Below, one piece after another: positions 61,472 through 63,268 of a DNA stretch of 64,000 nt. Both the position numbers and the translations under genes were made by a program. The notes below the pieces were generated by a model. It had not been told where the DNA came from and ran no database searches. It worked only from the letters and a program-made list of their open reading frames with translations. How positions within the stretch are numbered: the first letter of the stretch is position 1; each line of letters opens with the position of its first letter. The stretch is taken from the sequence record PQ666541; one strand, given 5' to 3'. This DNA comes from Shigella phage sb3.

Positions 61472-61624
61472 TCAATTAGTTGACTTTACTATAATATCAT
61501 CAGACGCTTGATTTGTAAACTGGTCTGTGTTATTTTCTTCAAAAATTTTTTCTACGAATTCCTTGAACGACTCACGTTCCTGAGCTACATTATGCTCGAT
61601 TACCTTTTCAAGATTATGACTCAT
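61472..61624 (-). CDS. Small hypothetical protein between arn and asiA
   Basis: 50-aa ORF found by reverse-strand translation; its ATG overlaps the arn stop; below the track cutoff. Confidence 0.45.
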   Translation of the reverse strand: MSHNLEKVIEHNVAQERESFKEFVEKIFEENNTDQFTNQASDDIIVKSTN

Positions 61625-61899
61625 TCAAAATAATCTTCAATTTCATAATCATGGACATAAACCATTATAGTTTTTAATACATCATCAATACTTTTTCCTG
61701 GAGCTGGAATTACGTAAAAATATCCTGCTTTTGAGAGGTCTTTATAAGTTCCAACTAAGAAATCATTATTCTCAAGATGTAGTTCTTCAACTAATTCATT
61801 AACAATTGAGTGGTATAAATTTGGTAGAAACTTATATAGCTTTTCTAGAATATCAATTTTGATTGTGTATTGAACCACAGACTGAGAATCAATAATCAT
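61621..61899 (-). CDS. arn: Arn anti-restriction protein (McrBC inhibitor)
   Basis: 92-aa acidic ORF, same length as T4 Arn; position next to asiA. Confidence 0.8.
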   Translation of the reverse strand: MIIDSQSVVQYTIKIDILEKLYKFLPNLYHSIVNELVEELHLENNDFLVGTYKDLSKAGYFYVIPAPGKSIDDVLKTIMVYVHDYEIEDYFE

Positions 61900-61982
61900 A
61901 GACCTTCCCCTTATGTTTCTGTTTGCGATTAGATTCTTTAAACGCTTTCTTCTTATCCTTATGGACAGAAGCTTTATTAAAA

Positions 61983-62201
61983 TTATGTTTTGCGACTAAA
62001 TTGTTCATAGTGCTGAATTACCTCTCTCAAACATTTGCATGTGAATGAAAACTTTTTAGCTACACCACATTCAAATATATGTTCTCTTAAATCACGTGTA
62101 TCAGTATATCCCATCTCAACGATAAAATGTCTTATTAAATTTTTATCTTTATCATTAAGAGAATTAAAATAATCGGATTTTGAATTAATTTCCCTGGCCA
62201 A
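61983..62201 (-). CDS. Hypothetical protein
   Basis: 72-aa ORF. Confidence 0.5.
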   Translation of the reverse strand: MAREINSKSDYFNSLNDKDKNLIRHFIVEMGYTDTRDLREHIFECGVAKKFSFTCKCLREVIQHYEQFSRKT

Positions 62202-62481
62202 ATTGAATCACCTTCAGTTGACGTTTTAGTTCTTTTATCATTTCTTCGTTCATCGCAATATAAAGATCGCGTAAAGCAGGTTTTAACATGTCATTTATTA
62301 TAGAACTAAATGGACATACATAATCTTTTCCTACAAGCTTTTTAGTGAATTCCATATCGCAGAACTTAAACCCCGGTTCATTGGCATAAATTCCCCAATT
62401 AGTTGACATCATTTTATTGGCATATTCCAGTGCCTGGATTTGATTCATAATTCCATCAATTTGAAACTTTTTAATATTCAT
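62185..62481 (-). CDS. Hypothetical protein
   Basis: 98-aa ORF. Confidence 0.55.
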   Translation of the reverse strand: MNIKKFQIDGIMNQIQALEYANKMMSTNWGIYANEPGFKFCDMEFTKKLVGKDYVCPFSSIINDMLKPALRDLYIAMNEEMIKELKRQLKVIQFGQGN

Positions 62482-62942
62482 TAGTAAAGGTCCTCAGAGT
62501 AAAGTTCTTTTTCACTACCACCGCGTTCAATACGTACTTGTCCAGCATAAGTTGCAATAATCATTGCTTCTTCACGTGTCCAATAATTACTATACTGATC
62601 AATAAACCCTTGGTCATCATCACAAACTTGCTGAGTAACTAATTGAGGTTTAACTACATCTAAAACTTCTGCCATATCTTTAGAATAATGACGAGCACCT
62701 GGAATAACAAGAGTTCGTCCATCTTTTAATTTAAAACGGTTGGCTGCGCAAACAATTCGTCGTTGATACTTTTGGTTTTTATCCCAGTATGCGGTCTGCC
62801 AACAGATTTCAGGAACTTCTCTAAGAACATTTTGTTCTGTGTATTTATCACCATGCGCTGTAAATTTAGCAGCCAAACTTTCTGGGGTCTCACGTGACAA
62901 AGGCACTTTGAGCATTTTTAAACGTTCTTTAAAAGTTTTCAT
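62481..62942 (-). CDS. Hypothetical protein
   Basis: 153-aa ORF whose start overlaps the upstream stop. Confidence 0.55.
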
Positions 62943-63268
62943 TTAAACCATCCTTTAATACGCTGCCACAAAGTTTTCTGTTGAGCTTTGTTAACACCAA
63001 TTGATCGAATAACTGGTTGAGATTCCTGGAATTCTTTATAATCAGCAAGGTAAATTTCGTAAGCTGCATCCGTAAATGAACTTATCGCTGCCATGAAATT
63101 ATTGCGAATACCTACTGGAGCATCTTTACTTTCACGAATAATCATGTATTTACCAGTCTTAATCTTTACAATACTTCCAAGATAAGCTCCATGGTACCAG
63201 ATGTCCCACCCCTCTTGAGTGGGTTCTGCACAACGACGAAGTTCATTAACAATTTCTAACTTGTTCAT
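62939..63268 (-). CDS. Hypothetical protein
   Basis: 109-aa ORF. Confidence 0.55.

Follow-up and report, generated by a model that had tools for sequence, protein, structure and literature searches.

The window analysed here is a stretch of 64,000 nucleotides (nt) from Shigella phage sb3 (sequence record PQ666541), and our subject is a run of five small open reading frames (ORFs) at 61472-63268, among the genes for AsiA, Arn and MotA. The original prediction described them as five tightly coupled ORFs that could not be recognised, packed between arn and motA in an immediate-early operon, and proposed them as candidates for host shut-off or anti-defence functions. All five are found exactly where they had been placed, on the minus strand, with 50, 72, 98, 153 and 109 amino acids (aa). 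Judging from sequence comparison, they are almost certainly the T-even genes asiA.1, arn.1, arn.2, arn.3 and arn.4 in a close relative of T4. The genes of the cluster and its two promoters are these.

61187-61459, minus strand: asiA, anti-sigma-70 factor (Pfam AsiA, E=1e-42)
61472-61624, minus strand: asiA.1, 50 aa (phrog_3762, E=1e-37; T4 annotation)
61491-61519, minus strand: early-type promoter that lies in the 3' end of asiA.1 and is positioned to transcribe asiA (TTTACA, 17 nt spacer, TG-TATTAT; best match of the promoter scan, 10 of 12 positions)
61621-61899, minus strand: arn, DNA-mimic inhibitor of McrBC (Pfam DM_Arn, E=2e-53)
61889-62008, minus strand: orf39, an unnamed DUF7230 ORF of 39 aa (PF23876, E=1e-11; phrog_1359, E=5e-23)
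61983-62201, minus strand: arn.1, 72 aa from a TTG start (phrog_4452 over all 72 aa, E=5e-39)
62185-62481, minus strand: arn.2, 98 aa (phrog_1844, E=2e-50)
62481-62942, minus strand: arn.3, 153 aa, with a variable helical N-terminus and a conserved core at about residues 60-153
62939-63268, minus strand: arn.4, 109 aa, with a core of helix, sheet and helix (residues 1-83), then a linker of low confidence and a basic C-terminal helix
63279-63914, minus strand: motA, which activates middle transcription and heads the chain (Pfam MotA_activ and MotCF, E=1e-61 and 1e-67)
63956-63984, minus strand: T4 early-type sigma-70 promoter upstream of motA (TTTACA, 17 nt spacer, TG-TACTAT; promoter scan)

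Along its full length, the 3.5 kb around the five ORFs has 97% identity to Tequatrovirus genomes such as vB_EcoM_SA20RB, pSs-1 and ime09, and 852 phage records match the region in all. The five proteins are 88-100% identical to those of T4 by tblastn. For each there is a full-length match to a PHROG family (3762, 4452, 1844, 839 and 1594; E=1e-37 to 5e-74). The T4 genes asiA.1 and arn.1-arn.4 (T4p256 and T4p258-261; PHROGs 3762, 4452/6212, 1844, 839 and 1594/33982) have the same order, strand and overlaps as the genes here. These families have no assigned function, except for the label 'anti-restriction nuclease' on the arn.1 family, which derives from the gene name. Records that use T4 nomenclature give the minus-strand order as motA, arn.4, arn.3, arn.2, arn.1, an unnamed ORF, arn, asiA.1 and asiA, and the holin gene t lies on the plus strand, convergent toward the cluster. 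T4, ime09, CrRp10 and 40 T4-like loci likewise have these genes between asiA and motA on the strand opposite t.

The flanking genes were named correctly in the original prediction, as the Pfam matches of AsiA, Arn and MotA in the list show, and the coupling is as tight as described: from motA to asiA there are nine genes in 2.73 kb, and every boundary is an overlap of 1-26 nt or a gap of 10-12 nt. The position between arn and motA is right for arn.1-arn.4 and wrong for asiA.1, which is located between asiA and arn. The count of five misses a sixth conserved ORF, orf39 at 61889-62008. As for the ORFs being unrecognised and uncharacterised, they are named T4 genes, and their functions are still unassigned in a preprint of June 2026 that states the functions of arn.1-arn.4 to be unknown and deems counter-defence conceivable (bioRxiv 10.64898/2026.06.19.733364). 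Since the ORFs have long been catalogued and the anti-defence idea has been published, the ORFs, the gap in knowledge and the suggestion itself are all already known.

The five are real protein-coding genes under purifying selection. We compared each ORF with its ungapped orthologues from 80 fetched loci, and the ratio of non-synonymous to synonymous change (pN/pS) was 0.32 for asiA.1, 0.16 for the core of arn.1 and 0.00 for its 5' extension, 0.17 for arn.2, 0.24 for arn.3 and 0.14 for arn.4. The weakest constraint is thus that of asiA.1. This gene carries the early-type promoter of asiA inside its coding sequence, so its 3' end is under dual constraint. The product is acidic (isoelectric point, pI, 4.6), and the asiA.1 ATG overlaps the arn stop codon (ATGA).

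The claim that the ORFs share an operon with arn stands. On the minus strand a simple scan found no internal sigma-70 promoter and no terminator-like site in the stretch from the motA early promoter to the asiA promoter, no MotA-box middle promoter was found in 61-64 kb, and an Rfam search of 60.5-64 kb returned nothing credible. Because there is no MotA box and no minus-strand terminator, and the early promoters are at 63984 and 61519 only, arn.4 to asiA.1 are most simply transcribed by read-through from the motA promoter, which is the likely source of read-through into arn.4 through arn. In T2, arn.4-arn.3-arn.2-arn.1-arn is a single transcript (bioRxiv 10.64898/2026.06.19.733364). The term immediate-early fares less well. 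Time-resolved omics of T4 detected RNA and protein of all five genes (PMC9697503, supplementary files 4 and 6), and all the RNAs are early. Arn.2, Arn.3 and Arn.4 are also early as proteins, but Arn.1 is a middle protein and AsiA.1 a late one (PMC9697503), and the arn cluster is termed middle in T2 (bioRxiv 10.64898/2026.06.19.733364).

Start codons and an overlooked reading frame

The T4 annotation limits arn.1 to the equivalent of 61983-62114, which gives a protein of 43 aa and a 70-nt 'intergenic region' after arn.2. Comparative sequence data favour 72 aa from the TTG, so that the 43-aa annotation would be too short, and they bear out the TTG-start frame in which arn.1 was listed before. 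The TTG of the window is preceded at a suitable distance by the Shine-Dalgarno sequence AAGGTGA, and the longer frame shares 17 nt with arn.2. Diverged T4-like phages start the ORF at an ATG or GTG that is one codon away from where the TTG lies, again behind a good Shine-Dalgarno sequence, and in them 'Met30' of the long form, with which the T4 annotation starts, is Leu. The extension keeps the motif (S/K)SDYFNSLN..(D/E)K..I+.FI(V/T)E; the loci that bear on the long frame are L008, L014, L020, L027, L029, L030 and L038. Among close relatives the extension (62115-62201) has 34 synonymous differences and 0 non-synonymous ones. The 72-aa form is also the one used by phrog_4452 and by gene calls in public assemblies.

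This matters for the current model of arn transcript control. In T2 the host small RNA (sRNA) ArcZ pairs with arn.2 at +285 to +294 and shields the transcript of arn against RNase E, which acts at GcAUU, 11 nt upstream of the annotated arn.1 ATG; the model relies on the 43-aa arn.1 and takes the spacer between arn.2 and arn.1 as non-coding (bioRxiv 10.64898/2026.06.19.733364). Both sites have counterparts here.

62188-62197, minus strand: counterpart of the ArcZ site, CCAGGGAAAT, at +285 to +294 of arn.2; in the 72-aa arn.1 it makes up codons 2-5, which follow the TTG directly
62126-62131, minus strand: GACAUU, which corresponds to the RNase E motif and is 11 nt upstream of the T4-annotated arn.1 ATG; inside the Arg-His codons of the long arn.1

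The sequence CCAGGGAAAT occurs once in the window, where 0.07 chance matches are expected. The exact ArcZ site is kept only in loci of the T4/T2 type, and other genera have a AAGGAAAT-like ribosome-binding site at the equivalent stretch. The long frame turns the proposed 'intergenic' regulatory stretch into coding sequence and puts the sRNA site in a translation-initiation region, so the current ArcZ/RNase E model should be read differently. On a reading that we find rather improbable, ArcZ would then control arn.1 translation besides transcript stability.

The overlooked ORF, orf39, shares 26 nt with the end of arn.1 and 11 nt with the start of arn. The annotation of phage ime09 includes it and that of the T4 reference does not, although T4 encodes an identical peptide. 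The product is very basic (pI 10.2). The gene is present in nearly all of the 40 T4-like loci at 50-100% identity, with pN/pS of 0.15; few genes of the cluster are conserved as widely in T4-like genera. A K-rich motif raised the idea of an ArfA-like ribosome-rescue peptide, which we rejected: there was no PDB or Pfam match to ArfA at E up to 10, and hhalign gave a probability of 0.3% against the E. coli ArfA sequence. Searches of the PDB with phmmer or hmmsearch found nothing below E=0.1.

A further difference from T4 concerns arn.4. The window and all other Tequatrovirus loci have an ATG at its start, at window positions 63266-63268, and the T4 reference NC_000866 has ATA there (L003 3455-3457). 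The T4 frame of 109 codons is otherwise intact. The ATA codon accounts for the annotation of only 68 aa in the T4 reference and for the 133-nt 'gap' after motA, and reference T4 may under-express full-length Arn.4.

Conservation across T4-like genera

The comparison of the 40 T4-like loci separates two kinds of genes. The backbone consists of motA, arn.4, arn.3, orf39, asiA and t. The original prediction had asked for presence and absence across T-even genomes; arn.4 and arn.3 are near-universal, and arn.2 and arn.1 are found in many of the loci and not in all. Between orf39 and asiA lies a variable slot of 218-1067 bp, filled in Tequatrovirus by arn and asiA.1.

By tblastn arn and asiA.1 seem to be genus-specific. 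Slot ORFs of other genera (86-99 aa) are nonetheless diverged homologues of Arn: hhalign gives a probability of 96% (E=3.8e-9) over 88 columns at 19% identity. These ORFs are at L008 4429-4728, L012 4833-5114, L021 4571-4831, L023 4994-5272, L025 4779-5057, L030 4952-5230 and L038 4653-4916. Pfam DM_Arn does not match the slot ORFs of other genera and tblastn also misses the kinship, which profile-profile comparison alone shows. The last ORF before asiA opens with MSHNLE in every T4-like genus, as AsiA.1 does, and varies in length from 50 to 124 aa. Only some 20 N-terminal residues of these ORFs align, at an hhalign probability of 67% (L011 4839-5003, L023 5269-5607, L029 4930-5268, L051 4457-4633 and others). 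Possibly the T4-type AsiA.1 is a shortened relative, with the asiA promoter now lying in its 3' end. Because the slot holds diverged Arn homologues, and MSHNLE ORFs whose remainder varies, we conclude that arn and asiA.1 evolve fast, as arms-race genes do, and that the backbone genes evolve slowly.

Some of the slots also contain ORFs of 85-102 aa with the pattern ..EA..C.W..R.R..G.EWY...RWE.., whose likeness to DUF2829/Tad2 by eye is no more than a lead (L025 5400-5657, L030 5550-5816, L032 5887-6195 and L045 4557-4859). The ORF in L030 has no Pfam match at E up to 0.1.

Two observations concern the genes next to the cluster. Inside the 3' end of asiA, about 45 nt past the t stop codon, there is a 14-bp palindromic hairpin followed by a plus-strand T-run (61229-61261). 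It probably terminates transcription of the convergent gene t from within asiA. Between gp37 and t, at 59708-60499 on the plus strand, is a glycine-rich ORF of 263 aa of the T2-type gp38 adhesin kind and not the 183-aa T4-type gp38 assembly factor, which implies T2-like receptor recognition in Shigella phage sb3.

The proteins and their relatives

The most widespread of the five products is Arn.3. Its conserved core of about 90 aa carries the motifs RIVCAAxR...G.RH...QGFID..G.F..REEA..IA..AGQ...LFSEDLY and ends with LFSEDLY at the C-terminus. Among 63 sequences at 32-55% identity, R84, H85, Q111, G112, F113, R123, Q135, L147 and E150 are invariant and D115 is nearly so. Exhaustive searching with a profile gave 3,405 representative clusters at E<=1e-3, and 1,384 at E<=1e-10. 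Many members stand alone at 83-110 aa, with minimal forms of 83-95 aa, and the domain is carried by T4-like phages, by phages of 140-150 kb and by jumbo phages of 224-325 kb. No conserved neighbour was seen in 37 non-T4 loci, and no Pfam domain is fused to it in the ten longest members (244-434 aa) among the top 150 profile hits. Among 185,579 species-representative bacterial and archaeal genomes there is a single locus. It lies on the contig JAAEPD010000025.1 of an Aureispira sp. metagenome-assembled genome (L081 6001-6279), a 30-kb contig that may itself be viral.

By sequence, profile or fold Arn.3 has no similar solved structure in the PDB, with nothing below E=0.1 by sequence or profile, and a Foldseek search of the viral structures in BFVD returned mainly uncharacterised phage proteins. 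Three BFVD proteins labelled 'large polyvalent protein associated domain' have a region that aligns to it (E of 3e-3, 1e-2 and 0.14). Large polyvalent proteins of phages and conjugative elements have been proposed as effectors of early-phase conflict by Iyer, Burroughs and Aravind in 2017, and Arn.3 goes unmentioned there (PMC5512222). Our local Pfam library, which we believe to include the large polyvalent protein domain (LPD) families, matched none of the 63 Arn.3-family members. The link is weak, a faint hint of a role for Arn.3 in early conflict between phage and host. The invariant polar residues of Arn.3 look like those of an enzyme or a ligand pocket, and it would most likely be a catalytic or small-molecule-binding module working alone.

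The other products offer fewer clues. In Arn.1 the residues H41, C45, C57 and H64 are invariant in 13 sequences at 45-99% identity, so that a small metal-stabilised binding module is the most likely interpretation of the alignment. The alignment of Arn.2 suggests that conserved segments at the N- and C-terminal ends flank a variable middle, and it shows few invariant residues. The predicted model of Arn.4 (overall pLDDT, the predicted local distance difference test, of 83) shows a helix, a four-stranded sheet and a helix in residues 1-83, then the low-confidence linker and a conserved basic amphipathic helix. We considered this last helix as a membrane-targeting sequence; its hydrophobic moment of 0.56 is reached by 14% of shuffles, which makes it a lead only. 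Searches of the PDB by phmmer or hmmsearch found nothing below E=0.1 for Arn.1 or Arn.4, nor was there a PDB match below E=0.1 for Arn.2, which also has no Pfam match. The homology and structure check proposed in the original prediction thus gives no solved or characterised relative for Arn.1-4 by sequence or profile search of the PDB.

NCBIfam, Pfam and PADLOC gave no significant match for the uncharacterised proteins of the cluster, DUF7230 on orf39 excepted. Hits to Thr_dehydrat_C, Cache_3-Cache_2, Prok-E2_B, PRK05928 and rSAM_ocin_1 were far below the Pfam and NCBIfam cut-offs and were rejected, as were two partial PADLOC-DB matches, which we judge to be chance (PD-T4-9_B, E=0.0018 over 32 residues; REase_II, E=0.0033).

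The obvious comparison is with Arn itself. Arn, the T4 DNA-mimic McrBC inhibitor (PF22134), shares with its neighbours a transcript, early expression, small size and dispensability in E. coli K-12. There is no sequence similarity between Arn and Arn.1-4, and DM_Arn matches none of the five ORFs at E up to 0.1 while matching the arn ORF alone. Arn has a pI of 4.6. Arn.1-4 are neutral to basic (pI 7.7-9.2) and lack the strongly acidic character expected of DNA mimicry; AsiA.1 is acidic but has 50 aa and a sequence unrelated to Arn. The label 'anti-restriction nuclease' on homologues of Arn.1-4 is most likely a carry-over from gene names given by position, and we found nothing to back it.

Phages encode several small stand-alone counter-defence proteins that act as signal sponges or enzymes: Acb1, Acb2, Tad1 and Tad2. 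Arn.3 is like them in being small, partnerless, widespread in unrelated phages and near-absent from cells, and in having conserved polar residues. It differs in having no similarity to solved structures, and insertions in T4 arn.3 are not depleted by CBASS, so the resemblance is one of lifestyle only. YkuJ-like proteins of unknown function (PDB 1ylx and 2ffg) also count among the closest comparisons for the cluster.

Proposed accessory roles and their alternatives

Published genetics establish that the five genes are dispensable for T4 growth on E. coli K-12. Transposon insertion sequencing (Tn-seq) of T4 hit 13 of 13 TA sites in arn.1, 21 of 22 in arn.2, 33 of 34 in arn.3, 16 of 16 in arn.4 and 11 of 11 in asiA.1, and all are non-essential; the essential genes motA and asiA were hit at only 2 of 53 and 7 of 23 sites (bioRxiv 10.1101/2025.11.20.689424). 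All these genes are 'Not Fit' by CRISPRi-ART (PMC11879866). We give this result little weight because motA is also 'Not Fit' there while being essential by Tn-seq.

We tentatively prefer the idea that the products are early, co-expressed accessory proteins acting on host components that matter only in some hosts, and we would not quite call it probable. Together with arn and orf39, asiA.1 and arn.1-arn.4 follow motA as a gap-free series of overlapping genes, probably coupled in translation, and their transcription in the first minutes of infection most likely starts at the motA early promoter. Each product would be a small soluble protein acting on a host component important only in some hosts, with a counter-defence or host-takeover accessory role like that of the neighbouring Arn. 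Arn.2 and Arn.4, with few invariant polar residues, would most likely be stoichiometric binders, and Arn.1 and AsiA.1 are likewise likelier to be binders. Arn.3 would be the best candidate for catalysis or ligand binding.

Several results weigh against this preference. The five ORFs match no known anti-defence, defence, toxin or host-takeover family in Pfam, NCBIfam, PADLOC or the PDB. The conditional Tn-seq hits for RexAB, RnlAB, CBASS, DarTG1, DarTG2 and minimal medium are in other genes (bioRxiv 10.1101/2025.11.20.689424). In the RnlAB comparison the five genes have log2 fold changes of -0.05 to 0.75, and in a host that depletes nrdC.1, a gene tied to the Septu system of a clinical isolate, they have values of -0.08 to 0.33, with an adjusted p of 1 in both cases (bioRxiv 10.1101/2025.11.20.689424). 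The arn.3/arn.4/orf39 backbone is slow-evolving and near-universal in T4-like phages, which makes it less arms-race-like than arn. The Foldseek E-values that tie Arn.3 to polyvalent proteins run from 3e-3 to 0.14, and the putative metal site of Arn.1 is drawn from four invariant residues. The original proposal of host shut-off or anti-defence functions therefore finds no backing in family homology or in the Tn-seq of the defence hosts examined. Those data come near to the blank defence panel that had been named as grounds for giving the proposal up; because the panel is small, they do not overturn it.

The strong conservation of the backbone could instead mean that arn.4, arn.3 and orf39, with or without arn.2 and arn.1, are auxiliaries of the MotA/AsiA takeover rather than anti-defence genes, fine-tuning host RNA polymerase, the nucleoid or RNA metabolism at the switch from early to middle transcription and being redundant in rich laboratory culture. 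The backbone lies between motA and asiA in every T4-like genus examined, evolves slowly compared with arn and is expressed together with motA and asiA. No phenotype is seen in the defence-system hosts examined, the transcript is under the control of host Hfq, ArcZ and RNase E, and the basic character of orf39 and Arn.4 (pI 10.2 and 9.2) would fit nucleic-acid binding. We still regard this as unlikely. No DNA-, RNA- or RNA polymerase-binding domain was detected, no transcription phenotype has been reported, and the Arn.3 domain occurs alone in many phages without motA or asiA, so the role of Arn.3 cannot depend on sigma appropriation. A very different possibility is that some of the ORFs, above all asiA.1 and the extension at the 5' end of arn.1, go untranslated and that their conservation reflects promoter or RNA-regulatory sequence, with the asiA promoter and the sites for ArcZ and RNase E. 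The weak constraint on asiA.1, which contains that promoter, and the T4 annotation and 2026 preprint, which treat the spacer between arn.2 and arn.1 as non-coding with regulatory sites, would fit. We consider this very improbable, since AsiA.1 protein has been detected in T4 (PMC9697503), and the arn.1 extension has only synonymous differences, an ATG or GTG at the equivalent position and Leu for 'Met30' in other genera, and a place in phrog_4452 and public gene calls.

Arn.3 invites explanations of its own, and we find both of the specific ones rather improbable. It might be a small enzyme of nucleotides or nucleic acids (modification, salvage, or RNA or DNA end repair) and not an inhibitor directed at the host, with the other ORFs as unrelated passengers. 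R84, H85, Q111, G112, F113, R123, Q135 and E150, together with the near-invariant D115, are what an enzyme might be expected to keep, the family of 3405 clusters is large, no partner gene is needed and one BFVD relative is labelled 'putative polynucleotide kinase'. That label is a bare database name; for an enzyme, 83-95 aa would be a small core, and a metabolic activity would not usually show up at just one locus among 185,579 cellular genomes. Alternatively the Arn.3 core could be a virus-restricted fold without a solved relative, a stand-alone enzyme or small-molecule sponge acting against a widespread, unpaired pathway of bacterial immunity or stress. This would explain why the core turns up in over 3,400 phage protein clusters, in T4-like and jumbo phages alike, and hardly at all in cellular genomes.

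Whichever role applies, accessory proteins that matter in some hosts being the one we prefer, several of the observations are new: the arn.1 frame and its consequence for ArcZ, the DUF7230 ORF, the ATA codon of T4, the size and virus-restricted distribution of the Arn.3 domain, and the diverged Arn homologues in other genera. The annotation of the T4 cluster gains from three of them, a 72-aa arn.1, an ORF that was not annotated and the ATA codon at the start of arn.4 in the reference. The five genes are 'dark matter' of the best-studied phage, conserved, expressed within minutes and dispensable in the laboratory. Their profile resembles that of the recently recognised counter-defence factors tk.4/AdfM and nrdC.1. 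If any of the ORFs neutralises a host system, Arn.3 would be the most important, given that thousands of phage lineages carry its domain.

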